A stretch of DNA of 64,000 nt from Anaerolineae bacterium (GCA_035341665.1 DAOQVR010000002.1:117626-181625); one strand, 5' to 3'; shown: positions 3,641-58,836, counted from the stretch's first letter. Translations and numbers: made by a program. Notes: a model not told the origin generated them from the letters alone.

Positions 3641-3724
3641 TGGTCGATAGTCGTTTCTGGAAAAACGGGCATTTTGGGATAGTACCCTCAAATACATGTC
3701 AGAGTGTCAGAGTTCGGCAACCCT
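3641..3724 (+). promoter_or_regulatory. Conserved intergenic element, copy 1 of 3 (candidate operator/activator site)
   Basis: About 80-85% identical by hand alignment to 29976-30062 (+) and 57289-57366 (-). Core GATAGTCGTTTCTGGAAAnnCGGGCATTTyGGGATAGTACCC...TGTCAsAGTGTCAsAGTTCG. Confidence 0.6.
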
Positions 3725-3750
3725 GCGCACGGCAGGGCCGCCCCCCTCTC

Positions 3751-4000: not shown

Positions 4001-6184
4001 ATGAGGTCGAGAGCGATCATCGCGTACACGTTGGCTGCGATTCTACTCCTCACCGCGGCCGGTGCGCCCCTGCATCCGGCCGCCTCCGCGCCCGAAGCGG
4101 AGGCCGGTGAGGCCTGGTCGGACCTCTTTGACCTGCCCGGGACCACCGGCGGCGGGCCGGCTGCCCTAGCCCTCGACGAGGGCGGCGCACTCTACGCCGG
4201 CGGCAGCTTTGCCGCCGTGGACGGCGTCCCGGCCAACCTGGTCGCCCGGCTCGAGGACGGCGCCTGGTCGGCGCTGGGCACCGGACTCCAGGGTGACTAC
4301 GCCGTCGTCGGCGCGCTGGCAGCCGCAGACGGCTTCCTCTACGCCGGCGGCACCTTCACCCTCGCCGGCGGGCAGCCGGCCAACCTGGTCGCCCGCTGGG
4401 ACGGTGCCTCCTGGAGCGCCCTCGGCAGCGGCCTCGGGGGCGCCTACGCTGGGGTGAATGCCCTCGCCGTCGACGCACAGGGCAATCTCTATGCCGGTGG
4501 CTCCTTCACCAGCGCCGGCGGGGCGCCGGCCATGTACGTCGCCCGCTGGGACGGCACCGCCTGGAGTCCACTGGGCAGCGGCACCGACGGCACGGTACAC
4601 GCCCTGGCGCTCGACCTGGACGGCACCCTCTACGCCGGCGGCTCCTTCGCCACCGCCGGCGGCGTTCCGGCGCAGGGCGTCGCCCGCTGGGACGGCGCGG
4701 CATGGTCCGCGCTGGGCAGCGGCACCGACGACACGGTGCTCACCCTTGCGCTCGACGGCGACGGAGATCTCTACGCCGGCGGCTGGTTCACCCAGGCCGG
4801 CGGGCTGCCGGCCTCCGGTATAGCCCGCTGGGACGGCGCGGCCTGGAGCCCCCTCGGCAGCGGGGTGGGGGGAGACTACCCGGCGGTCATGGCCCTGGCG
4901 CCCGGCGGCGGGGACGTTCTGTGCGCCGGCGGCTCCTTCACGACGGCTGGTGGGCAGCCCGCAGGCAACATCGCCCGCTGGGACGGCTCGGCCTGGAGCC
5001 CCCTGGGCACGGGCGTGGGCGGCCTCTACGCGAGCGTCAGCGCGCTGGCCCTCACGCCCGCGGGCATGCTGTACGCCGGCGGCGCGTTCACCATCGCGGG
5101 AGGGCGGGCAGCCAGCTACCTGGCCCTTTGGGATGGCGCTGCCTGGAACCCCCTGGGCGAGGGACAGGGCATGACCGGCTGGGTTCTTTCCTTGGCCGGC
5201 GACGGCAGCGCGGGCCTCTACGCGGGCGGCGCCTTTGGCACCGCGGGCCAGGCAGTCGCCCGCCGCGTGGCGCACTGGGACGGCTCGGCCTGGAGCCCCC
5301 TCGGCAGCGGCGTGGACGGTGCGGTCAACGCCCTCGCCGTCGGCGCCGCGGGTCTCTACGCAGGCGGCGAGTTCACCTCTGCCGGAGATGCGCCGGCCAA
5401 TCGCATAGCCCGCTGGGACGGAGCCACCTGGAGCGCACTGGGCAGCGGCGTGAACAACACCGTCTGGGCTCTGGCAGTCGACGCCGAGAGCCGTCTCTAT
5501 GCCGGGGGCGACTTCTCCGCAGCCGGCGGTGCCCCGGCGAGCCGCATCGCCCGCTGGGACGGCAGCGCCTGGTCCCCGCTGGGCAGCGGCATGGGCGGCT
5601 ACGGCAATCAGTCTGTCCTCAGCCTGGCGGTGGGCGAGGACGGCAGCCTCTTCGCCGGCGGCTCCTTCACAAGCGCAGGCGGCGTGCCGGCCAACAACAT
5701 TGCCCGCTGGGATGGCTCCACCTGGAGCGCCCTGGGCAGCGGCATCGCCGGCACGGTCTACTCCCTGGCCCTTGACGGCGCCGGAGGCCTGCTCGCCGGC
5801 GGCTGGTTCGAATCGGCCGGCGACGTCCCGGCCATGTACATCGCCCGCTGGGACGGCGCTTCCTGGAGTGCCCTCGGCAGTGGCATGGATTGGCTCGTCT
5901 TTGCCATCGCCGCGGCCCGCCCCGACGACCTGTATGCCGCCGGGTACTTCACCCAGGCAGGCGGTGCCCCTGCCCAGTACGTAGCCCACTGGGACGGCAC
6001 GGCCTGGAGCCCTCTGGGCGGCGGCGCCGGCGACATGGTGCGCGCCGCGTGGCTGGACCCCCTGGGCAGGCTCTACCTCGGCGGCGAGTTCACCTCCGCG
6101 GGCGACAAGCCCTCCAGCTACATCGCCCGCTGGGGCGCCCCCTCCAGGTTCATCTTCCTGCCGCTGGTCGTGCGCGACCGCTGA
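4001..6184 (+). CDS. Secreted repeat protein, 13 tandem ~57-aa units (beta-propeller-like)
   Basis: Start at MRSRAIIAYTLAAILLLTAAGAPLHPAASA (signal peptide), preceded by GAGGAGGG. Unit LYAGGxFtxAGGxPAxxIARWDGxxWSxLGSG is repeated 13 times. C-terminal tail FIFLPLVVRDR. Confidence 0.8.
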   Translation: MRSRAIIAYTLAAILLLTAAGAPLHPAASAPEAEAGEAWSDLFDLPGTTGGGPAALALDEGGALYAGGSFAAVDGVPANLVARLEDGAWSALGTGLQGDYAVVGALAAADGFLYAGGTFTLAGGQPANLVARWDGASWSALGSGLGGAYAGVNALAVDAQGNLYAGGSFTSAGGAPAMYVARWDGTAWSPLGSGTDGTVHALALDLDGTLYAGGSFATAGGVPAQGVARWDGAAWSALGSGTDDTVLTLALDGDGDLYAGGWFTQAGGLPASGIARWDGAAWSPLGSGVGGDYPAVMALAPGGGDVLCAGGSFTTAGGQPAGNIARWDGSAWSPLGTGVGGLYASVSALALTPAGMLYAGGAFTIAGGRAASYLALWDGAAWNPLGEGQGMTGWVLSLAGDGSAGLYAGGAFGTAGQAVARRVAHWDGSAWSPLGSGVDGAVNALAVGAAGLYAGGEFTSAGDAPANRIARWDGATWSALGSGVNNTVWALAVDAESRLYAGGDFSAAGGAPASRIARWDGSAWSPLGSGMGGYGNQSVLSLAVGEDGSLFAGGSFTSAGGVPANNIARWDGSTWSALGSGIAGTVYSLALDGAGGLLAGGWFESAGDVPAMYIARWDGASWSALGSGMDWLVFAIAAARPDDLYAAGYFTQAGGAPAQYVAHWDGTAWSPLGGGAGDMVRAAWLDPLGRLYLGGEFTSAGDKPSSYIARWGAPSRFIFLPLVVRDR

Positions 6185-29975: not shown

Positions 29976-30062
29976 GATGGTCGATAATTGTTTCTGGGAT
30001 TTCGGCCATTTCGGGATAGTACCCTTAAAAACGTGGCACAGTGTCACAGTTCGCGAACCCTA
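29976..30062 (+). promoter_or_regulatory. Conserved intergenic element, copy 2 of 3
   Basis: GATGGTCGATAATTGTTTCTGGGATTTCGGCCATTTCGGGATAGTACCCTTAAAAACGTGGCACAGTGTCACAGTTCGCGAACCC, 118 nt upstream of the PA14 gene. Confidence 0.6.
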
Positions 30063-30179
30063 TGCAGGGGCACCTCCGGGAACCATTTCGCGGCATCCTG
30101 CGTCTATCTGGTGAGAGAGCCGGCCCTGCGAGGGCTGGCAGCGACGTACTTTCCGAGAAGAAGTAGATGGAGGTGTAAC

Positions 30180-46223: not shown

Positions 46224-46296
46224 GCCGCGGTAGCTCAGTTGGTAGAGCAATTGACTGAAAATCAATGGGTCCCCAGTTCAAGTCTGGGCTGCGGCA
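46224..46296 (+). tRNA. tRNA-Phe (GAA)
   Basis: GCCGCGG acceptor, anticodon loop CTGAAAA, T-loop TTCAAGT. Confidence 0.9.
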
Positions 46297-46321
46297 CCTG
46301 GTAACAATCGATCGGCATTCT

Positions 46322-46393
46322 GCGGGCGTGGCTCAGTGGTAGAGCATCTCCTTGCCAAGGAGAGAGTCGTGGGTTCGAATCCCATCGCCCGCT
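46322..46393 (+). tRNA. tRNA-Gly (GCC)
   Basis: GCGGGCG acceptor, anticodon loop TTGCCAA, T-loop TTCGAAT. Confidence 0.9.
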
Positions 46394-46405
46394 CTGTTTT
46401 TTGGC

Positions 46406-46477
46406 GGCGACGTAGCCAAGTGGCAAGGCAGCGGTCTGCAAAACCGCGATTCACGGGTTCAAATCCCGTCGTCGCCT
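46406..46477 (+). tRNA. tRNA-Cys (GCA)
   Basis: GGCGACG acceptor, anticodon loop CTGCAAA, discriminator U. Confidence 0.9.
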
Positions 46478-46526
46478 CTCGACAAACCGGCTGGTAGCGG
46501 GCGCTATCAGCCGCTTTTCATCTTGC

Positions 46527-46607
46527 GGGGCGGTGGCGAAACGGCAGACGCTGCGGACTTAAAATCCGCTGGGGCATCCCATGTGGGTTCGAATCCCACC
46601 CGCCCTA
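46527..46607 (+). tRNA. tRNA-Leu (TAA), class II with long variable arm
   Basis: TGGCGAAACGGCAGACGC D-arm, anticodon loop CTTAAAA, variable arm TGGGGCATCCCATG. G1-U72 wobble at the top of the acceptor stem. Confidence 0.8.
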
Positions 46608-46666
46608 CTGAGCCGCAGCCCACCGGCCGCGCCCCCAGGCCCATTCCGGGATGGAATACCCCCTAT

Positions 46667-49237: not shown

Positions 49238-50926
49238 CTAAGGCGGCCGCCGGAGCCTGCCCAGGGCGGCCAGGTCGGGCACCGCCGTGATTGTGCCGCC
49301 GCCGATCGCCCACAGCCCGGTCGCCAAGCGCTCGATGAAGTAGCGGTCGTGCAGGATCGCCAGCACAGTCCCGTGGTAGGCCACCATCGCCTGCTCAAAG
49401 TGCTCGCGCGACGGCAGGTCTAGGTGGTTGATCGGCTCGTCGAGGATGAGCAGGTTGCACCCCATTGCCACCAGCCGCGCCAGGCCCAGCCGTGCGCGCT
49501 CGCCCAGGCTCAAGCTGCCGACCGGGCGCAGGGCATCGTCGCCCCCAAAGAGAAAGTAGTGCAGAAAGCTCCGTGCCTCTGTCTGGTCCATCGAGACCGC
49601 CGAGCGGATCACAGCGTAGGGGGTGCTGTCCGGGTCGAGCTGCTCCTGCTCTTGGGCATAATAGCCGGCACGCACCCCGGTGCCGAGCTGCACGCGGCCC
49701 GCCAGCGGCTCCATCTCGCCCAGGATCAGGCGCGCCAGCGTCGTCTTGCCGGAGCCGTTCGGTCCCACGAGCGCAATCCGCTCGCCCGCCGGCAGCGTCA
49801 GATTCACCCCCTCAAAGAGCGCTCGCCCGCCAAACCCCATCCCAATATCCTCGAGCCGCAGCACCATGCGGCCGCCGGCCGGCGTGGCGCCGAACTCGAG
49901 GCGCATCTCCCAGCTGCGGTCCGGCTTGTCGATCCGCTCCTCCGAATCGAGCAGCCTGCGCAGTCGCTTCTGCTGCACGACGGCGCGGCGGGCGATCCCC
50001 TTCGCGATCTTGCGGGTGGCAAAGTTGATGGTGCCCTGCTCGATCGACCTGGCATAGCGCTTTTTGGCCGTGATGGTGCTCTCCAGCCGGCCTATGAACG
50101 CCTGCTGGTCGGCATAGGCGGCCCAGTGGCGCTGCCGTTCCCTCTCCTTCGCCGCCGCGTAGGAGGTATAGTCCCCGTCGTAGAGTGTGACGGCGTGGCT
50201 GTGGACGTCCATTTCCAGGATAGCGCCCACGGTACGGTCGAGGAAGGTTCGGTCGTGCGACACGACGAGCACTGCCCCGGCAAAGCCCTGTAGGAAACGC
50301 TCCAACCACTCCAGCGCCTCCATGTCGAGGTGGTTGGTTGGTTCGTCCAGCAGAAGCAGGGAGGGCTGCGCACGGCCGGCCGTCCCGTACGCAGAGAGGA
50401 GCAGCCGCGCCAGCCCAAGCCTCGTCTTTTCGCCTCCGCTCAGGCGGTCCACCGGCGTCTCCCGCCCCAGGCGCCCCAGGCCCAGCCCGTCGAGCACCTC
50501 CTCGCCGCGCGCCGCCGCGCCGTAGCCACCCAGCCGCTCATACGCCTCCTGCGCCCGGCCATACTCGGCCAGAAGGCGGTCCAGCTCCCCGCCCGCCGCG
50601 GCCCCCATGCGTGCCGTGAGCCACTCCAACAGGCGTTCGGCGTCCGCCAGGCCTGCCACAGCCTCCGCCAATACGTGCCCCACCGTCTCGCCCGGCTCGA
50701 ACTCGAGCGCCTGCGCCAGGTAGCCCACCGGGAGGCCGGGAGGCGAGAAGGAGACGCTGCCGCCGTCGGGCGCGATCTGGCCGGCGATGATTCGCAGCAG
50801 CGTGGTCTTGCCGCAGCCGTTGGGCCCGACCAGGCCTGCGCGCTCGCCGTCGTTGAGGGTGAAGGAGACGCGCTCGAAGAGAAGCTCTCCGCCGAGCGAC
50901 TTCGAGACGCTGCTAAGCTGAAGCAT
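49238..50926 (-). CDS. ABC-F family ATPase (two ABC domains, no TM)
   Basis: GPNGCGKTT and GPNGSGKTT Walker A motifs, LSGGEKTRL and LSLGERARL signatures. Confidence 0.9.
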
Positions 50927-51866
50927 ATCCGGTGACGATCAGCTCAATGACCTTGCCGCGCCGCGCCCCGTTCGAGTTGATGGCGCGTCCGGCCTGCACG
51001 CGGTGCAGCCGGAAGGGAGGTGCCCCGTACAGCGCGCGCACCAGTTCGGTGTCCGAGTTCGAGAGCAGGACGTGCACGCCGCGGCGGGCCAGCTCGGCGC
51101 AGACGTCGCGCAGCCGCGCCTGGTCGGCTGGCGAAAAGCCGCCCGGCTGGTAGGCGGTGAAGCAGGCCGTCGCCGAGAGCGGCGCGTACGGCGGGTCGAA
51201 GTAAACCAGGTCGCCGTGCGCGGCCCGCTCCAGCACCGACTCAAAGGGCGCACAGCGGATGTCGATCCCCTTCAGCGCAGCCGACACCGCACGGAGATTC
51301 TCCGCGTCGCAGTACCGGGGCGACCGGTAGCGCCCAAAGGGCACGTTGAACTGCCCTCGCCGGTTCACGCGATAGAGGCCGTTGTAGCCGGTCTTGTTGA
51401 GGTAGATGGTGCGCGCCGCCCGCGCCATCAGGTCGAGCGCCGCCGGGTCCTTGGCACGCAGCGCGTAATAGAACTCGGCGTTGTGGGGGTAGCCGGCCAG
51501 CAGTGCCACCAGCGCCTCGGGGTGATCGCGGACCGCCAGGTAGGCATCGACCAGCTCCCCGTTCGAGTCGGAGAGATGAGCGCTCCCCGGCAGGCCCTGC
51601 CGCAGCAGCCGGAAGAAGAGCGCCCCGCTTCCGACAAAGGGCTCAAAATAGCTGCCAAAGGCGGCTGGAGCCCGCCGCAACAGCTCCTCTGCCAGCCCGG
51701 CTTTGCCGCCTGCCCACTTCAGGAACGGCCGGGGCAGCTGTCGGGAGCCGCCCTCCAGCCCGGCCGCTCCCCCGCTGCGTCGCGCCCAGGCCGCGGCCCG
51801 GGGTGGCTCCGGCACGTTTTGCACATTCACGCCGATGAGTATACCATTGCCGGAGGGGGAGGGCAA
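50913..51866 (-). CDS. Dam-family DNA N6-adenine methyltransferase; N-terminus probably shorter than the ORF
   Basis: [18 protein letters not shown] (motif I) and DPPY (motif IV). Its 3' end overlaps the ABC-F start by 14 nt. Confidence 0.8.
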
Positions 51867-51877
51867 GCAGCGCCGTC

Positions 51878-52723
51878 ATGGGCCTGATCTTCAAGCTGGA
51901 CGACTACCCCGGCTACCTGGAGCGGGTCGGCGGCGCCGCCTACGTCGACCTGACGCGGCGCACCGACCCGGCGCGCATCCCCGAGGTGTGGGACAACCTG
52001 CGGGCCGTCGTCGAGGCCTATGGGGCGCCCTGGATCGTGCAGGTATGGACCAAGGACGCGGCCGGCACCCTCGCCCACGGCCGCCGGTTGCTCGAGCGCC
52101 TCGCCGACGCCGGAACAGCGCTCGCCGCGCAAGTGACGGTGACCGGGCTGGGCAGCACAGCCTGGGAGCCGCTCGTGCCCGCCGAGCCCTTTGCCGGCGT
52201 GGCAGAGATGGCCGCGCTCGTCGGCGGACCGGAGCACGTGTGCTGGCGCTTTGACCCGGTCATACCAGGCGTCAGCCGCCTGGATACCTTTCAGCGCCTG
52301 GCCGCCCGCGCCGCCGCGCTCGGCATCCGCCGCGGCGTGGTCAACTTCCTTGCGCCGCCGGGCCGCTATGCCCGCGTCGACGCCCGGCTGGCAAGCCTGC
52401 TGCCCGGCTGGCGCGAGGGCATGCCCGGCTACGACCTCGACTGGCAGGCGCAAATGGCGGTCAAGTTGGTCCGCGCCGCCTGCGATGCGGGGATCGAGCT
52501 CGCGGCGTGCGCCGAATCCTCTGGCCTGCCCGCCCTCGTGCCGGGGCTCAGAGCGTCTGCCTGCGGCGACCATGCCTGGTTCGTCGCGCTGTCGGGCCGC
52601 GACCCCGGGCGCGCACGCGGCTCCGCCAGCCGACGCGGCTGCGGCTGCGCGGCCTACTTCGATGCCGGCTGCTACGGTCGGTGGGCACGGTGCCACCGCT
52701 GCGCCTACTGCTACGCCGGGTAG
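51878..52723 (+). CDS. DUF1848 domain protein
   Basis: Length and the C-terminal Cys cluster GCGC..YFD.GCY...RC..C.YCYA match my recollection of DUF1848. Confidence 0.6.
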   Translation: MGLIFKLDDYPGYLERVGGAAYVDLTRRTDPARIPEVWDNLRAVVEAYGAPWIVQVWTKDAAGTLAHGRRLLERLADAGTALAAQVTVTGLGSTAWEPLVPAEPFAGVAEMAALVGGPEHVCWRFDPVIPGVSRLDTFQRLAARAAALGIRRGVVNFLAPPGRYARVDARLASLLPGWREGMPGYDLDWQAQMAVKLVRAACDAGIELAACAESSGLPALVPGLRASACGDHAWFVALSGRDPGRARGSASRRGCGCAAYFDAGCYGRWARCHRCAYCYAG

Positions 52724-54084
52724 GGCGGGACCTTTACCTCCACGTAGCGGACCGACGCCCCGGCTGCCTGGGGCTCCAGGTCGGTGCGCTGCGGTTGGCT
52801 CGCCTGCCGCAGCTCTTCCTCCGGCGCATTCGGGTAGACGCGCCCGTTCTGCGCCAGCTGCCCGAGCACCTTAAGGAGCGGGGGGTATGGCACGGGGAAC
52901 TCGTCGCCGTGCTTGCCCGGTACCGTGGACACCACCACTTGCGTCCGCTCGGGCGACACCATCATGCGCAGCTTGTCCTCGCCCCCTTCCCGGAAGGGCG
53001 TGCCGTTGTGGCTCCCGTGGTGCGCCACCTTGAGGAAATCGAGCGGCTGGAGCAGGAGGCCCGCCACCTCCGGGTGGTGGAGCATCACGTCCCACGTGGA
53101 GTTGCGCCGCCCCAACTCCACGCCGCTGCCCTGCCACTCGGCGTCCCCCGCAAAGAGGAGCCGCCTCTTGCGCCACTCCAGCAGCAACACCACGCTGGTG
53201 TTGTTCTTGAGCGCGTCGTCCTCCTGCGAAAAGGCGAGTGCCATCGTCGCCAGCCGGCCCCGCAGGATCCGAAAGTCCCGCTCGCTGATGTTGGCTGGCC
53301 GCGCCGGCTCCACATCGCCCGTCGCGGCACCCGGCAGGGCGGCGGGCGATGCGCCTGCATCGGCCGGCTGCCGCCCCACCAGCGCGCTGCCCGGCAGTAG
53401 GTCCCGGCCCAGGTAGTACTTGTCCACGTTCCACTCGGGTGCCAGCACGCGCAGGCAGGTACCCTCCTCCCGAAAGCCCCGAAACCGGGTGGTGTCCTGG
53501 TCCCGGTCGAGCGCGTAGTCCCGTCGCTTGGCCTGGGTCAGCTTGGGCGCCAGGTCGCGCGCCACGTACAGAGGGTAGGCGGGCTGGATGCCGCCAGACT
53601 GCGCCAGCTCCTCGCGCAGGGCCCGCAGGGCGCCGGGGTTGTTGATGCTCCAGGTCGACCTCTCCATCAGCGCCTGGGCGGCGGGCGCCAGGGCCGCGCC
53701 ATACTGGGCAGCGGCCATGGCGCAGGCAGCCGCCATCTCCTGCAGGGCGTGCGCCTTCTCGGCCTGCGGATGGTCGTCGTCCATGAATACGGACAGCCAG
53801 ATGCGCCGGATGTGGGCGCCTGCCAGCCACGCGGGGTTGAAGCCCTTGATGTGGTCGGCGTGGGGATGCGTGACCACCAGCAGGTCGAGCTGCCGCTTGC
53901 CGTCCTCCAGCGGCAGCATCGAGAGGACGTCGTCCAGGGCCGGCTTGAGGATCGATCCAGCCGCCGACGTTCCGCAGTCGATCAGCATGTGGAAAGCCGT
54001 GCCCTCGCCGTCCGGGATCTGGACGTAGACACAGTCGCCGAATCCAACGTCGTAGCTGCGCACCACAATCGGCCTGTCGTCCAT
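52711..54084 (-). CDS. MBL-fold metallo-hydrolase, ComEC/Rec2-like lactamase_B domain (457 aa)
   Basis: Start at MDDRPIVV after a GAGGTAGG RBS. VTHPHADH (HxHxDH), GDAEW and KVAHHGSHNG motifs. No signal peptide. Confidence 0.7.
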   Translation of the reverse strand: MDDRPIVVRSYDVGFGDCVYVQIPDGEGTAFHMLIDCGTSAAGSILKPALDDVLSMLPLEDGKRQLDLLVVTHPHADHIKGFNPAWLAGAHIRRIWLSVFMDDDHPQAEKAHALQEMAAACAMAAAQYGAALAPAAQALMERSTWSINNPGALRALREELAQSGGIQPAYPLYVARDLAPKLTQAKRRDYALDRDQDTTRFRGFREEGTCLRVLAPEWNVDKYYLGRDLLPGSALVGRQPADAGASPAALPGAATGDVEPARPANISERDFRILRGRLATMALAFSQEDDALKNNTSVVLLLEWRKRRLLFAGDAEWQGSGVELGRRNSTWDVMLHHPEVAGLLLQPLDFLKVAHHGSHNGTPFREGGEDKLRMMVSPERTQVVVSTVPGKHGDEFPVPYPPLLKVLGQLAQNGRVYPNAPEEELRQASQPQRTDLEPQAAGASVRYVEVKVPPYPA

Positions 54085-54094
54085 GCAGCCTACC

Positions 54095-56077
54095 TCACTG
54101 TCTGCGACTGTTCCGCAGGTGGGGCGGTACCTCAAAGGTGAGCACACCGTCCGGCGCCCGGCAGGCCACCACCGGCTGCCGGGTATCGACCTCGCCCTGC
54201 CCGCTGCCCTCGACCGGCCCGATCTGCCCGGACGCCACCCGGCTCCGGACATACGCCAGCAGCCGGGCCCGACGCTCGGCGCCCAGCGCCTGGTCCGGGT
54301 GGGTCGACCCATCCTGCCGGCCGGTGCCGGGCTTGCGCGCCCAGTGCAGCAGGTTGCCCCGGCTGTCAAAGACCAGCGTTCCGCCGCACAGGAGCGCCGT
54401 CGCCTCCCCGTCCAGCGCGCCGTACTCCGACCCGTGCAGCTCCACGTCCTCGCGCCAGATGTACTGAAGGACAATCTCGCGCGGCAGCCGCATCCCCGAC
54501 TGCTTGTCCCCCTTGTCCGTTTGGTAGAGGTCCGCCACGGAGATGTCGTGCTCGGCGGGGATGCGCAGCGCGGCGCGGTTCCGGTTCAGAAAGAGGTAGG
54601 CGTCGGTGCGCGAGCGCGAGATTGTGTCGATGTCCTCCGCGACGCAGCGCAGCGCCTCTGGCAGCACCGCCTCCGGCAGGGCGATGCCCCGAGCGGCAAA
54701 GACCCTCTCCATCATCGGCCGGAACCGGTCGCGGTCCGCCGGGTCCGCCACCTCGTCCGCCCGCAGCACCGCCCGGCAGTAGTCACCAAAGTCGACGTCC
54801 ACCGGCGGCAGATAGTCCAGCGGCTGCAGCGCCGTCCTGCGGAAGCGGTCCGCCGCCCGGCGCAGCACCCGCTCGATCAGCTGTGGGTCGCTCCCCGCAT
54901 CCTGCTGCGCCGGGGTGTCGCCGCCGACGCTCGTCTCCCGGCGGAGATAGCGCGAAGCCATCCCCTTCAGGATCTGGAACATGGCGCCCGTGAGCACCTG
55001 CGAGCGGTCGTGCGGGCTCAGGCTGCCCGCAACATCCCCGAGGGTCAGGTGCTGCTGTGCGCTGCGCAGGTAGGGTCGGCCGGCCGCCGACCAGCCAAAC
55101 TCCTCCGCCAGAAACGAGAGCGTCCTGTCACGCGACAGGTGCCCGCCCGTCTCCTGGGCAACCTTCCAGCGCACCTGGTTGTTGAGCAACGCCGTCATGA
55201 TCGCCGTCAAGTCCGCCGCGAACTCGTGAAAGGCCGTCGTCTCCAGCGAGCTATCCTCGTGATACAGCGGCCGCATACCGTCGAGGATTGCGTGGCCCGT
55301 CTCGTGGGCAATGATGTCGTGCGACAGGCAGGTGAAGCATCGCCTGTCTGCCCCGTCAAAGTAGTAGAACTGGATCGACTTGCTCTGCCGATCATAGAAG
55401 GCATTGTCCAGGTAGCCGGCGTGGGGCACGACGATCAGGCGGTTGCCCTCAAAGGCCCAGGGGGCGGCGCGCCCCAGCACCCAGGGCTCCTCGTAGAGCT
55501 GTAGGACCGACTGGATGACGGCCCAGGCGTTGACCTGGTGGTACTGCGGCCGCTCGCAGTGCTCGGTCGTAAGGGGCACCTGCTCCGGCCCAGACCGGAA
55601 CATGAAGCGGCAGCGCTGCGCGTCCCACCCCGCCGGATCCTCCAGCCTTCCCTTGTCCGCGTCCCAGTCGACGACAGCGATGCGCGCGCTCGTCGGTCCA
55701 TCCGAGAGCCGCAACAGGCTGGGAGAAAAGTTCAGCAGGCCCAAGGGATCGCTCATGCTCGGGTCCTGGACGTACGCCATCACACGCAGCGTGTCCCCCG
55801 CCTCCGCCTCGGCCGCCGGGATCGGCTTCCCGGCAGCCGCAGGCGATGCTGCGGCCATCGCCCGCTCGACGATTTGGGTCACCGCCTTCCATGGATCCTT
55901 GCCCTCGGCGCGCGCCGGGCCCGGCCTCACCGGCCCGGGCGGCCCGATCGTTGCCATCTCCTTCCACGTGGAGCGCGGGATGGCCTCCGCGACGACCGCC
56001 TCGGGCTCGCTTGAGAAGGAGTCCAGTACCTCCTTCTGCACCCACGTCTTGGCGTCTTCCGGCCTGCCCTCTCTCAC
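54095..56077 (-). CDS. Cytoplasmic thermolysin-like (gluzincin, M4-like core) HExxH protein with N- and C-terminal extensions (660 aa)
   Basis: GTG start after GGGGAGGG. ..LDNAFYD..IQFYYFDG..HDIIAHETGHAILD..(20 aa)..TAFHEFAADL parallels thermolysin NAFW..YGDGDG..VVAHELTHAVTD..INEAISD. No signal peptide. Confidence 0.6.
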   Translation of the reverse strand: MREGRPEDAKTWVQKEVLDSFSSEPEAVVAEAIPRSTWKEMATIGPPGPVRPGPARAEGKDPWKAVTQIVERAMAAASPAAAGKPIPAAEAEAGDTLRVMAYVQDPSMSDPLGLLNFSPSLLRLSDGPTSARIAVVDWDADKGRLEDPAGWDAQRCRFMFRSGPEQVPLTTEHCERPQYHQVNAWAVIQSVLQLYEEPWVLGRAAPWAFEGNRLIVVPHAGYLDNAFYDRQSKSIQFYYFDGADRRCFTCLSHDIIAHETGHAILDGMRPLYHEDSSLETTAFHEFAADLTAIMTALLNNQVRWKVAQETGGHLSRDRTLSFLAEEFGWSAAGRPYLRSAQQHLTLGDVAGSLSPHDRSQVLTGAMFQILKGMASRYLRRETSVGGDTPAQQDAGSDPQLIERVLRRAADRFRRTALQPLDYLPPVDVDFGDYCRAVLRADEVADPADRDRFRPMMERVFAARGIALPEAVLPEALRCVAEDIDTISRSRTDAYLFLNRNRAALRIPAEHDISVADLYQTDKGDKQSGMRLPREIVLQYIWREDVELHGSEYGALDGEATALLCGGTLVFDSRGNLLHWARKPGTGRQDGSTHPDQALGAERRARLLAYVRSRVASGQIGPVEGSGQGEVDTRQPVVACRAPDGVLTFEVPPHLRNSRRQ

Positions 56078-56102
56078 CGTCGTGCCCTCCCCGCCTCGCG
56101 GC

Positions 56103-57107
56103 CTACTCCACCTTGCCGGTGATCCGCTTGGCCGTCCCCTCGATGAAATCCCATAGTGGCCAAGGGCTGCTGCCCAGAAGGAACGAGACCGCTGCCAAGA
56201 TCCGCGGGTCGGAGAGGTCGATGGTGAGCTGGTTGCCGCCTGCCAGCGTGATGCTGAGCGTCGCCAGCGAGAGCAGGAGCACCGCGACGAGGACCAGCAG
56301 CGGCGTGGTCAGAATATGGGCCACGTGCATCACGATCCCCTCTCGGTAGAAGCGGGACGAGCGCAGCCACCAGGCGATGGTGATGATCTTGTGGACCAGG
56401 ACCCCGGCCAGGCCCCACAAGATCACCTCCAGGAAGCGCCAAGCGCCCTGGTCCCAGATCCCGGCCGACTCGTGCGAGGCCGGCAGCACCAGCTGCTCGA
56501 GCGTCGCCAGGCCGGCCAGGACATCGGGCAGGCGGTCCTGGTCGAGTGCCGCGCGAAGCCCCTCCGCCAGCCCAACCACCACCTCGTCGGCCTCGCCCAG
56601 GTCACCACCCTTGACCAGTGCGTCCAGTGTCGACTCGATCTGCGCGATCGTGGCCCGCAGCTCTGCGCTGCCGTCCGGCTGGGCCTCAGCCGCCTGCGCC
56701 TGGGCCTGGTCGACGAGCGCCGGCAGGCCGGCCGCTAGGGGCGACGGCGGGCGCGGGAAGAAGGCATGCAGGGTTATGTAAAGTGCGATGAGGACCCCGA
56801 GCGCAATCAGCATCGCGAGCCAGGTGCGGCGGCCCAGCTTGGCGTCCTCTGTGTCCTGGGCGCGCTCGAGGTAGAGGCGGATGCCGGACTTGTCGTCCGT
56901 GGCAAGGTCGACCTCCTCTCGGCACGGGCGGCTCGACTCGTCGAGTGCGACCAGCACCCACTTGCCGGGATCGAGTGGGATCTCGAAATCGCCGTCGCCG
57001 TTGCTGCTGGTGTGGAGGATGGTGTCGCCTTTGACGGCCTTGACGGAGGCGTACTCGACGCGCTCCTTGCTTCCCTTCCGATAGAGGGTTCCGGACACCT
57101 TGGGCAT
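56103..57107 (-). CDS. Membrane protein: N-terminal carboxypeptidase-regulatory-like beta-sandwich, TM, ~120-aa helical loop, three more TMs
   Basis: ATG after an AAAGGAGA RBS. VSGTLYRKGSKERVEYASVKAVKGDTILHTSSNGDGDFEIPL is CarboxypepD_reg-like. TM segments WLAMLIALGVLIALYITL, FLEVILWGLAGVLV, ILTTPLLVLVAVLLLSLATL. Confidence 0.6.
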   Translation of the reverse strand: MPKVSGTLYRKGSKERVEYASVKAVKGDTILHTSSNGDGDFEIPLDPGKWVLVALDESSRPCREEVDLATDDKSGIRLYLERAQDTEDAKLGRRTWLAMLIALGVLIALYITLHAFFPRPPSPLAAGLPALVDQAQAQAAEAQPDGSAELRATIAQIESTLDALVKGGDLGEADEVVVGLAEGLRAALDQDRLPDVLAGLATLEQLVLPASHESAGIWDQGAWRFLEVILWGLAGVLVHKIITIAWWLRSSRFYREGIVMHVAHILTTPLLVLVAVLLLSLATLSITLAGGNQLTIDLSDPRILAAVSFLLGSSPWPLWDFIEGTAKRITGKVE

Positions 57108-57143
57108 GTTCGTCTCCTTTCTCACCCCGCGATATTAACGTCC

Positions 57144-57172
57144 ATTATACCGCAGTCCGCCGGGCAGGTCAA
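57144..57172 (-). promoter_or_regulatory. Near-consensus sigma70 promoter for the three-gene operon
   Basis: Minus strand TTGACC, 17 nt, TATAAT, about 35 nt upstream of the start codon. Confidence 0.55.
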
Positions 57173-57288
57173 TGGGGTATGTCTGGAGCCGGTCTCCGAC
57201 GAGGAGCGAAAGCCGACGTGCGGCCGGCGGCGATAGGCACTTGGTCCAGGGCTACGACGATGGGCGCCGTTGGCCTGGCTCTGCGTTG

Positions 57289-57366
57289 AGCTGGCGAACT
57301 CTGACACTGTGACACGATTTTTCGGGTACTATCCCGAAATGCCCGAATTTCCAGAAACGACTATCT
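57289..57366 (-). promoter_or_regulatory. Conserved intergenic element, copy 3 of 3
   Basis: Reverse complement GATAGTCGTTTCTGGAAATTCGGGCATTTCGGGATAGTACCCGAAAAATCGTGTCACAGTGTCAGAGTTCGCC, about 84% identical to copy 1. Confidence 0.6.
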
Positions 57367-57591
57367 CAGGGTGGGCGATGCACGGTGGGCGCGTGTGCAA
57401 ACCCACCCCACGACTGCTGTGCCGGGTGAGCCGGGCTGCCCGGGTAGGACCGGGAATGAAAGTTTCGGACAGCCCGGGCCGGGAGACCGAGCGTGCAGGG
57501 CACACGCAGCATGCCCCCACCAGGCACCCAGCTGGTGGTTTGCCCGGGCCATGTGGCTGTGATAGACTTGCGCCGGAAGGAGTGGGACGAT

Positions 57592-58836
57592 ATGCAACCT
57601 CGCCGCATCCACGCTGCCATCCTGCTTGCCATCACCCTTGGGGCGCTGCCCTGCCCGGTGCCCGGCTCGCATGCCGGGGCAGGGAAGGCGCCGGCCGCCC
57701 AGCAGAACGCCTCCGTTTTGGGCGCAACGCGCGTGACGGTCACGGGCCGTCGGCTGCTGGTGAACGGGCAGCCCTTCCAGGTGCGGGGCGTGGGCTATGC
57801 CCCCACCCCGATCGGCGACGATGTCCGGTACGACTGGCCCTATGGCGACTATTTCACGGCCGAGCATGCCGCAATCTACAGCCGCGACCTACCGCTCCTG
57901 AGGGACATGGGGGCGAACACGGTCCGCCTCTGGGGCTGGAAATACGACAGCCCGGAGCATGGTCCCTTCCTCGACGCGGCGCACAACGGCGGCTCGCGCC
58001 CGATCTATGTCATCGTTTCCTACTGGCTCGGCGCCGGGCGCGACATCCACTCCCCAGCGGGCAGGCAGGCGATCGTCGACGAGTTCACACAGATGGTGGC
58101 TATCCACAAGGACCATCCGGCCGTGCTGATGTGGGCTATCGGAAACGAGCTGAATGCAAGCTGGATGTATGGGGACAGCGACGACCTCTTCAGCCTGATC
58201 GACGAGATGGCCGCGGCCGCCCACGCCGAGGAGGGGGAGAGCTACCACCCGGTCACTACGCCGCTGTGCGATGGCCCCAGCCCAACGAGCCTGATCGACA
58301 CGATCGCCGCCCGCGATCCGCAGGTGCCCAACCTGGACGTGTGGAGCGTGCAGGTTTACCGCGGCCCCTCCTTCGGCAGCCTCTTCGTCGACTATGCAGC
58401 CGTGAGTGGAAAGCCGCTAGCCATCACCGAGTATGGTATTGACGCCTACGATATGGCGCATGGGACGGAGTATGAGCTGATCGGCACGCCCTACCAGGCG
58501 ACCTACGCAGAGGCGCTGTGGAAAGAGATCGCCGCCAACCCAGAGGTGTGTGCCGGCGGCGCGATCATGGCCTACAGTGACGAGTGGTGGAAGGGGGCGA
58601 ATGGCGCAGAACCGCCCGGAGGGGGTTGTCCCGAAGGGGACGCCGGGTTCCACAGCGTGTGCGGCTATACCAACCTCGCTCACCCCGATGGCTTTTCCAA
58701 CGAGGAGTGGTGGGGCATTGTGCGACCGGTGAAGAATGGCGACTCGCCGGACATCATGCAGAAGAGGGCGGCCTACCACCGGCTGAGGTCGCTCTGGACG
58801 AGCAGCGTGTATGTTCCGTGCGTGATGAGGCAGTGA
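57592..58836 (+). CDS. Secreted clan GH-A glycoside hydrolase (GH2-TIM/GH5-like)
   Basis: Signal [40 protein letters not shown] (acid/base) and AITEYG (nucleophile). C-terminal tail [10 protein letters not shown]. Confidence 0.7.

Follow-up and report, generated by a model that had tools for sequence, protein, structure and literature searches.

According to the accessible parts of two reports, protease-associated proteins of the metallo-β-lactamase (MBL) fold resemble ComEC and have an active site obstructed by two insertions; they turn into zinc-dependent double-stranded DNA nucleases only after a partner protease has cut once in each insertion (PMC12642450, PMC12799240). The partners described there are trypsin-like, caspase-like, or S8 subtilisin-like, and are usually fused to STAND nucleoside triphosphatases, HamA, LmuA, or reverse transcriptases, and every pair characterised there operates by activating cleavage (PMC12642450, PMC12799240). 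Named examples in the accessible text of the sources are HamM in HamMAB, the MBL associated with Avs1/2/4 (Avs1a), trypsin-MBL, and the caspase-nuclease 'canu' (PMC12642450; PMC12799240; bioRxiv 10.1101/2025.09.03.673762). The nuclease gene of trypsin-MBL modules typically lies upstream of the protease gene (PMC12799240). The accessible parts of PMC12642450, PMC12799240, and the Aravind-group surveys mention no metalloprotease partner for a defence MBL, and literature searches found no metalloprotease-MBL defence pair. Here, we analyse a three-gene operon, A-B-C, from a 64,000-nucleotide (nt) stretch of DNA of an Anaerolineae bacterium (GCA_035341665.1 DAOQVR010000002.1:117626-181625; hereafter the window), in which B encodes a predicted thermolysin-fold zinc protease and C a ComEC-like MBL protein.

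The operon is formed by three open reading frames (ORFs) on the minus strand, separated by spacers of 25 nt (A/B) and 10 nt (B/C). The coordinates and spacing agree with an earlier interpretation made from the DNA alone (the sequence-only reading). Gene A (56103..57107, -) encodes 334 amino acids (aa) from an ATG codon, gene B (54095..56077, -) encodes 660 aa from a GTG codon with GGGGAGGG 8 nt upstream of the start, and gene C (52711..54084, -) encodes 457 aa. We consider all three to be real genes, because each has database homologues. The operon does not correspond to a known defence system in PADLOC-DB v2 or NCBIfam, since A and B have no match and C matches only partially, to the MBL parts of several systems. 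The sequence-only reading could not assign the genes to any named system; the protease-activated MBL modules (HamM, Avs-MBL, trypsin-MBL, and canu) provide such a precedent.

The ComEC-like MBL protein and its thermolysin-fold partner

The product of gene C is a ComEC-like MBL-fold hydrolase, predicted to be a latent zinc-dependent DNase. It has at least 376 homologues at E ≤ 0.001 and matches the Pfam family Lactamase_B (E 8.5e-12). The best solved relative of C is the MBL domain of ComEC (9ic4), both by profile comparison (E 2.4e-6) and by Foldseek (E 1.4e-8), and the next fold matches are phosphorylcholine esterase and β-CASP nucleases. The translation contains MBL motif 2 (HPHADH; H73, H75, D77, and H78), encoded at 53851..53868 (-), and MBL motif 5 of the ComEC type (HHGS; H355, H356, G357, and S358), encoded at 53011..53022 (-). 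All five MBL motifs, which are D36, HxHxDH at residues 73-78, H105, D314, and HHGS at residues 355-358, are invariant in 31 C homologues. C shares HxHxDH and HHGS with the ComEC/Rec2 nuclease domain, which is also its best match in structure and among PDB sequences. Unlike ComEC/Rec2, C is soluble, cytoplasmic, and always paired with a protease; it lacks the membrane channel and the OB domains, and its two insertions add about 160 residues. C has no transmembrane (TM) segments and scores 16.2 bits against the cut-off of 190 bits of the ComEC model TIGR00361. The ComEC/Rec2-type assignment of C and the missing channel, both proposed in the sequence-only reading, are thus retained.

The distance between the ComEC anchor points is about 273 aa in C and about 113 aa in ComEC, and the excess is made up of the two insertions. 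Insertion 1 (residues ~106-190; 53515..53769, -) is composed of helices and a low-confidence stretch at residues 168-180; it is a candidate for the first region of cleavage or occlusion. Insertion 2 (about residues 219-295, of which residues 219-262 are encoded at 53299..53430, -) is disordered and is a candidate second cleavage linker. It varies in sequence and length (35-55 aa) between invariant PEW..YLG and P..NIS motifs. The predicted local distance difference test score (pLDDT) of the C model is below 50 at residues 143-148, 168-180, and 219-260. The polypeptide of C has the same three-part layout as protease-activated MBLs, with motifs 1-3, insertion 1, middle strands, insertion 2, and motifs 4-5 following one another. 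If D314, the motif-4 aspartate of C, is set against D276 of VcMBL by numbering and with no alignment, the published VcMBL cuts at 133/134 and 232/233 project to residues ~170 and ~270 of C, and would thus lie inside the low-confidence stretches or at their borders. Comparison of C with plasmids by tblastn retrieved only B-C pairs, ComEC, or S-layer MBLs, and no Avs1a or HamM sequence for mapping of the cleavage sites.

The defence models matched by C are those matched by protease-activated MBL modules. All 31 C relatives match the PADLOC models of LmuA-MBL (best 3.5e-24), reverse transcriptase-associated MBL, Avs1a, and PDC-M48B (PDLC04676), and two further PDC-M48B models match 29 and 14 of them. 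In NCBIfam, the matches of C to Avs1a (4.6e-10) and 6A-MBL (2.5e-8) are well ahead of that to ComEC (2e-3). The PF23023 label carried by some C homologues was not reproduced at E ≤ 0.1.

Sequence and structure models support the prediction that B is a cytoplasmic M4-like (thermolysin-fold) gluzincin metallopeptidase. B has at least 1456 homologues at E ≤ 0.001, and its superfamily comprises 3760 clusters at 50% identity (E ≤ 1e-3), 1090 of them at E ≤ 1e-30. The score of B against Pfam Peptidase_M4 (PF01447) is 19.9 bits, compared to a gathering threshold of 22.4 bits (E 1e-3); Pfam shows no PF02868 match, NCBIfam and PADLOC give no match, and the PDB contains no sequence relative at E ≤ 1. 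A model of B was calculated using AlphaFold2 with 25 homologues (pLDDT 73, predicted template modelling (TM) score 0.79). Its top Foldseek matches are Legionella ProA, aureolysin, and thermolysin, with a probability of 1.0 and target-normalised TM scores of 0.52-0.62, at a sequence identity to solved M4 structures of 10-16%. The protein is composed of a disordered N-terminal region (residues 1-92), a catalytic domain (residues ~93-470), and an additional α+β domain (residues ~480-650) that has no confident structural match. The zinc site H258-E259-x-x-H262 ... E285 (HETGHAILDG...AFHE) is encoded at 55223..55306 (-), and H258, E259, H262, H284, and E285 do not vary among 25 diverse homologues. 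The thermolysin-like active site described in the sequence-only reading therefore stands, as the HETGH...FHE residues translate and Foldseek assigns the M4 fold with probability 1.0, apart from its spacing of 20 residues between the last histidine and the glutamate, which is 23.

Like members of peptidase family M4, B has a two-lobed fold and HExxH with a downstream glutamate as the third zinc ligand. Unlike them, it is cytoplasmic, with neither a signal peptide nor an FTP/PepSY propeptide, for which Pfam gives no match, and has the extra C-terminal α+β domain of about 170 aa. Neither B nor C has a hydrophobic segment or a signal-like N-terminus; the lack of a signal peptide had been noted previously for B. 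Both are assigned to the cytoplasm because they lack signal peptides and TM segments. Public records name B homologues 'serine protease' (e.g. NZ_CP017942.1, L084:7878-9710, and other RefSeq and GenBank entries) or 'hypothetical'. The former label is backed by no domain match, as the proteins are HExxH zinc peptidases of thermolysin fold, and is likely a propagated misannotation.

Co-inheritance, mobility and sensor fusions of the B-C pair

Relatives of B were scanned in one genome per species, which yielded at least 558 stretches, and the best 80 loci were analysed. The 80 loci come from at least eight phyla and include Chloroflexota, Acidobacteriota, Bacteroidota, Planctomycetota, Gemmatimonadota, Alphaproteobacteria (Bradyrhizobium, Mesorhizobium, Ensifer, Phyllobacterium, and Labrys), and others. 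Gene C is located directly 3' of B in essentially every locus with downstream DNA, and the adjacency extends to rhizobial plasmids. An identical 19-nt overlap of B and C, as defined by the starts of the longest ORFs, is present in 41 of the 47 complete pairs. The pairwise distances of B and C are correlated (Pearson r = 0.886, Mantel p = 0.001). Clustering of all 1305 flanking ORFs of the 80 loci identified no other conserved neighbour. A conserved third gene was rejected, as the clusters that follow in size are antisense artefacts, patatin (six loci), ABC ATPases, and a two-component kinase. Divergent plasmid-borne pairs from Agrobacterium vitis, a 41-kb Isosphaeraceae plasmid, Hymenobacter, and Deinococcus, in which the protease is 27-33% identical to B, also keep an adjacent C-like gene; in the two of these pairs tested (Agrobacterium vitis and Isosphaeraceae), hhalign identified the partner as a C-type MBL with a probability of 99.6%. 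It is close to certain that B and C are a functionally coupled pair. Furthermore, B-like genes are carried by 79 plasmids, of which 42 are predicted to be conjugative. Additional MBL genes or a second, more divergent B-C pair are located within 10 kb of some pairs (L030:13139-14746, L042:17574-18695, and L061:17901-20992 (-)).

Some B proteins are fused to domains of sensor type. Protein P0080 is an nSTAND1 domain fused to a full-length B, and P0327 has about 620 aa of leucine-rich repeats (LRR, x16) fused to B and is followed by a 451-aa MBL protein with the same 19-nt overlap. Two other B proteins have N-terminal extensions of about 550-600 aa of no recognised type, and each is directly trailed by an MBL gene. 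The fusions to LRR and STAND domains suggest that B is a signal-activated rather than a constitutive protease. The contig encoding P0080 (JGI 3300042731, 18.8 kb) is a dense island with the gene order Cap4-nuclease-NB-ARC (2017 aa), B, C, FGE-sulfatase, SIR2_2, nSTAND1-B, B.

The neighbourhoods of the B-C pairs fit a conflict setting. Among 127 proteins encoded around B-C in the first ~40 loci (L001-L043), PADLOC and Pfam searches found PtuA (2), MkoA/MkoC (2), AriA-like proteins (3), patatin/mad3 (4), subtilases (2), and IS66 transposases (2). A patatin-like phospholipase is encoded near B-C in six loci, at distances of up to ~350 nt in four of them and of 1.8 kb and 3.3 kb in the other two, and a Tle1-like/DUF2235 phospholipase gene lies 3' of the divergent pair in Agrobacterium vitis. 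Phospholipase genes beside B-C or A-like genes are found in L017:9890-11251, L025:13290-14339, L062:8575-9789, L079, L050, L032, L081:1713-2897, L082:5943-7958, and L086:9885-11015, and the recurring phospholipases could be an alternative or second effector. A gene of an S1/P1-type nuclease is positioned ~110-120 nt upstream of B in L053:8979-9875, L055, and L069 (Phyllobacterium and Ensifer).

Proposed mechanism and competing explanations

We propose that B and C constitute a self-contained, horizontally mobile two-gene conflict module, in which B activates the latent nuclease C. C would be made as an inactive ComEC-like MBL proenzyme, held off by the two insertions that are absent from ComEC. 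Upon a trigger, B would cut inside the insertions and convert C into a non-specific zinc-dependent DNase, which would kill or arrest the cell. The trigger may be sensed by the C-terminal α+β domain of B and elsewhere by the fused nSTAND1 domain or LRR arrays. In the Chloroflexi lineage, the promoter-proximal gene A would add a membrane protein docking on B, which could be a membrane anchor or sensor, or a second, membrane-damaging substrate. Because cleavage of C by B is plausible but unproven, we put the probability of the combined statement at about one half. We lean somewhat more firmly towards a conflict role of the pair as such, and the module probably serves anti-phage or anti-plasmid abortive defence.

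The proposal builds on the resemblance of B-C to protease-activated MBL modules. In both, a ComEC-like MBL protein with extra insertions is encoded beside a co-evolving protease, and the module is widespread and horizontally mobile. In some B relatives outside the window, a sensor of STAND type or a repeat array is fused to the protease, as in the described modules. Unlike in the described modules, the partner of C is an HExxH thermolysin-fold zinc metalloprotease instead of a trypsin-like, caspase-like, or S8 protease. Unlike the proteases fused to HamA, Avs, or LmuA, B is usually a free-standing protein and has a C-terminal domain of its own. C differs from the known protease-activated MBLs in being about 70 aa longer and in scoring far below the family cut-offs.

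The same gene pair could be wired differently within a conflict module. B may continuously degrade or mask C in the manner of a toxin-antitoxin (TA) system, so that loss or inhibition of B frees C, or B and C may be parallel effectors, a nuclease and a protease destroying proteins of the host or phage, with no zymogen activation. Co-inheritance, plasmid carriage, and the kinship of C to defence-type MBLs fit such arrangements equally well, and B of the window has no obvious sensor. On the Isosphaeraceae plasmid, a helix-turn-helix (HTH) regulator gene overlaps the start of the divergent B; HTH regulators are common in TA or abortive infection operons. We nevertheless consider these arrangements unlikely. 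C keeps two insertions where known zymogens carry inhibitory linkers, the fusion of B to LRR and STAND domains suggests a signal-activated protease, and all protease-MBL pairs characterised in the accessible parts of the two reports use activating cleavage (PMC12642450, PMC12799240).

Activation of a latent nuclease by B also has to be weighed against an ordinary accessory function in catabolism or stress, in which a peptidase and an MBL protein of the phosphodiesterase or lactonase type would act on a small molecule, a peptide, or a nucleic-acid turnover product. The genes flanking the operon in the window and at many other loci, such as that of Phyllobacterium, are housekeeping or transport genes, MBL esterases and lactonases are among the lower fold matches of C, and the public annotation is only generic. 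However, the closest sequence and fold relatives of C are ComEC and defence nucleases, not lactonases. The patchy spread over at least eight phyla, the plasmid carriage, and the variable flanks argue against such a function, as do the fusions of B to nSTAND1 and LRR arrays and the lack of a conserved metabolic partner gene at the analysed loci, and we regard it as improbable. A role in DNA uptake, competence, or envelope remodelling, with A as the membrane component and C as a ComEC-like nuclease acting on incoming DNA, was offered as an alternative in the sequence-only reading and draws on the structural match of C to the ComEC MBL domain and on the polytopic A in the same operon, but it found no support and is already disfavoured to the point of being very improbable, since C has no ComEC channel domain (TIGR00361, 16 against 190 bits), B and C are cytoplasmic, A is absent from ~95% of B-C loci, and no competence or cell-wall genes recur nearby.

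Several observations weigh against activation of C by B in a conflict module. The scores of C fall far short of the curated cut-offs for Avs1a (NF041809, 38.8 against 420 bits) and 6A-MBL (NF058524, 33.5 against 220 bits), and C therefore represents a separate, related family; its matches to the Avs1a and 6A-MBL models are mostly at the motif-bearing ends. B matches no defence model in PADLOC, and an equivalent of thermolysin His231 was not identified in it. The order of the genes, protease then MBL, is opposite to that typical of trypsin-MBL modules. B of the window has only the uncharacterised C-terminal domain and no recognised sensor domain. The models are of medium confidence (pLDDT 73), and the occlusion of the C active site by the insertions is a proposal. 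Adjacency and co-variation prove co-inheritance of B and C, not cleavage, and the reading of the B-C family draws on sequences and predicted models. The flanks of B-C also hold ordinary genes (ABC transporters, regulators, and two-component genes), those in the window are housekeeping (ABC-F, SelD-like, glycosidase, and S9 peptidase), and the enrichment in defence islands is suggestive. The idea of a conflict module, put forward in the sequence-only reading, has gained real, though indirect, support from the grouping of C with defence-associated MBLs, the nSTAND1 and LRR fusions of B, the plasmid-borne copies, the patchy spread, and the AbiE, Cap4-NB-ARC, and SIR2 neighbours in some relatives.

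The gating of death effectors by proteolysis became established in 2025 as a common logic of bacterial immunity; the cases so far involve serine and cysteine proteases, which almost always carry a known sensor as a fusion. The mechanism proposed here for B-C follows a principle already known from other MBL nucleases gated by proteolysis. The pair appears to be an undescribed, very large branch with another protease class, a reversed gene order, and mostly just two genes that lack a sensor. If the proposal is correct, B would be the first zinc protease partner of MBL nucleases. As the module consists of two genes with no recognisable sensor, it is well suited to studying how such a protease is kept inactive and then triggered. 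The superfamily of B is large and unannotated, is represented in bacteria of soil and water, in rhizobia, and on conjugative plasmids, and has no PADLOC model. We tentatively speculate that a fourth protease class, with a cytoplasmic thermolysin fold, gates a latent ComEC-like nuclease in a large, unnamed family of stand-alone two-gene immune modules, that the C-terminal domain of B is the infection sensor, and that filamentous Chloroflexi have coupled the module to A, as an envelope reporter or as a second, membrane-damaging substrate; this extended scenario is possible but doubtful.

Gene A, operon borders and neighbouring genes

The protein encoded by gene A is formed by a CarboxypepD_reg-like β-sandwich, a first TM helix, a helical extracytoplasmic loop of about 110 aa, and a C-terminal three-TM module. 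Its hydrophobic segments span residues ~93-119, 225-246, and 256-292, with one weaker segment thereafter. The N-domain and the TM helices agree with the sequence-only reading, although the N-domain scores below the Pfam cut-off (PF13620, 23.8 against 32.3 bits, E 6e-5). Most A homologues have a precomputed PF13620 match, and P0054, in which the N-domain is fused to B, passes with 36.2 bits. According to the positive-inside rule, the N-domain and the C-terminus are expected to be cytoplasmic. The C-terminal three-TM module is the most conserved part of A and contains the invariant residues W218, R224, E227, H261, and W316. A 242-aa form of A lacks the extracytoplasmic loop.

The A family is small, with at least 66 proteins at E ≤ 0.001, and has no match in PADLOC or NCBIfam. 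Searches with tblastn and phmmer found A homologues in four of the 80 loci (L002, L005, L007, and L027) and a fragment in L019, all from Chloroflexi, and two of the A-bearing loci have another gene between A and B. The trio, which the sequence-only reading had taken as a unit, was therefore rejected as a conserved system, as A is present in 4-5 of the 80 loci and is sometimes separated from B, and only B-C is syntenic across phyla. Because A is restricted to a few Chloroflexi loci, the conserved unit is B-C, and A is a lineage-specific addition.

A CarboxypepD_reg domain such as that at the N-terminus of A is fused to the N-terminus of B in P0050, P0054, and P0063; P0050 has no A gene upstream and an nSTAND1 gene nearby. 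This domain swap suggests that the cytoplasmic N-domain of A works with B. Docking of A on B is the most likely arrangement, because the β-sandwich of A recurs in other genomes as a direct fusion partner of B. A is thus a lineage-specific accessory that is either an effector or a sensor or anchor; judging from the domain fusions, it probably binds B through the β-sandwich and may be an anchor, a sensor, or a second substrate. As with the protease-gated membrane effectors EACC1 and Pepco, the gene of this membrane protein has a protease gene next to it and occurs in neighbourhoods of conflict type, and the soluble N-domain of A could be removed by cleavage. Unlike them, A is polytopic with a conserved three-TM core, and has no sequence match to such families.

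A-like genes adjoin genes of patatin, CHAT, four caspases, and a NACHT protein. The region L082:8001-11800 contains an A-like gene of the short form and, after it, broken B-like and C-like frames, and resembles a decayed copy of A-B-C; an intact B is located elsewhere on the same 272-kb contig. The A-like gene in L081:3281-5298 appears split, with the TM module joined to a CHAT (caspase-like) domain (P0305). This arrangement could reflect a genuine fusion, or else an assembly error or frameshift in a short contig built from reads.

The operon is preceded by a σ70-like promoter, TTGACC-17-TATAAT (57144..57172, -), which matches the consensus at 11 of 12 positions. It is the sole such site in 5.2 kb, where 0.2 would be expected. 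Between the start codon of A and a point just 5' of the -35 box, ~78 nt are 83-87% conserved in relatives L087-L091. Three related contigs, in which B and C are 82-85% identical to those of the window, retain A-B-C in unchanged order and spacing. Nucleotide homology among the close relatives starts just 5' of the -35 box (CCCCATTGACC...), and the sequence further upstream is unrelated in each relative, so the conserved unit begins at the promoter. An AbiEii gene and its partner, the latter encoding 274 aa, are positioned upstream of the promoter in L087 (L087:233-1968), an FGE-sulfatase gene and an ATPase_2/DUF234 gene in L090 (L090:4135-6643), and a 90-nt repeat and a glycosidase gene in the window. 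The A side of the operon is a variable junction, because everything 5' of the promoter differs among close relatives. This junction resembles an accessory-gene hotspot in L087 and L090.

The repeat of about 90 nt is present in three copies in the window, at 57272-57365 (-), 3646-3739 (+), and 29983-30072 (+), with a mean column identity of 75%. It is more A+T-rich than the genome and has the core GATAGTCGTTTCTGGAAATTCGGGCATTTCGGGATAGTACCC..CGTGTCACAGTGTCAGAGTTCGCCA. Copy 3 is located ~100 nt upstream of the operon promoter, so that both the strong promoter and the repeat noted upstream of the genes in the sequence-only reading were found at this site. However, the repeat was rejected as a part of the operon, since it is absent upstream of A in close relatives, whose homology begins at the promoter. 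An Rfam scan of positions 50000-58000, which include copy 3, gave no match. Copy 1 is trailed by a weak promoter-like site.

Two genes adjoin the operon on the side of C. A DUF1848 gene (51878..52723, +) is convergent with C, overlaps its 3' end by 13 nt, and matches the PADLOC model of reverse transcriptase-associated DUF1848 with E 3e-15. A gene of a Dam-family N6-adenine methyltransferase (50913..51866, -) follows. The two genes do abut the operon in the window, as the sequence-only reading had stated, but they are kept only in the closest relatives. The Dam gene is retained in the three closest ones and accompanies B-C in none of the other loci among the 80, whereas DUF1848 is present in L087 and L088, is absent in L090, and lies outside the conserved core. 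The Dam and DUF1848 genes are divergent and 11 nt apart, and may represent a small modification or defence unit of their own.

The wider window encodes housekeeping functions, including DnaE, adenosine deaminase, a tRNA cluster, a SelD-like protein, ABC-F, and an S9 peptidase. It was rejected as an obvious genomic island, since none of the ten annotated flanking ORFs (39.6-48.4 kb and 57.5-63 kb) encodes an integrase and the GC content is flat there. Four tRNA genes (Phe, Gly, Cys, and Leu) are clustered at 46224-46608, ~4 kb past the Dam gene, and no integrase was seen near them. Long tandem-repeat coding regions are located at 4160-6170 and 2370-2747 of the window. One has a period of 141-150 nt with a recurrent ARWDG..W..LG.G motif, and the other a period of 75-81 nt; they probably encode surface proteins of repeat or β-propeller type and of β-helix type.

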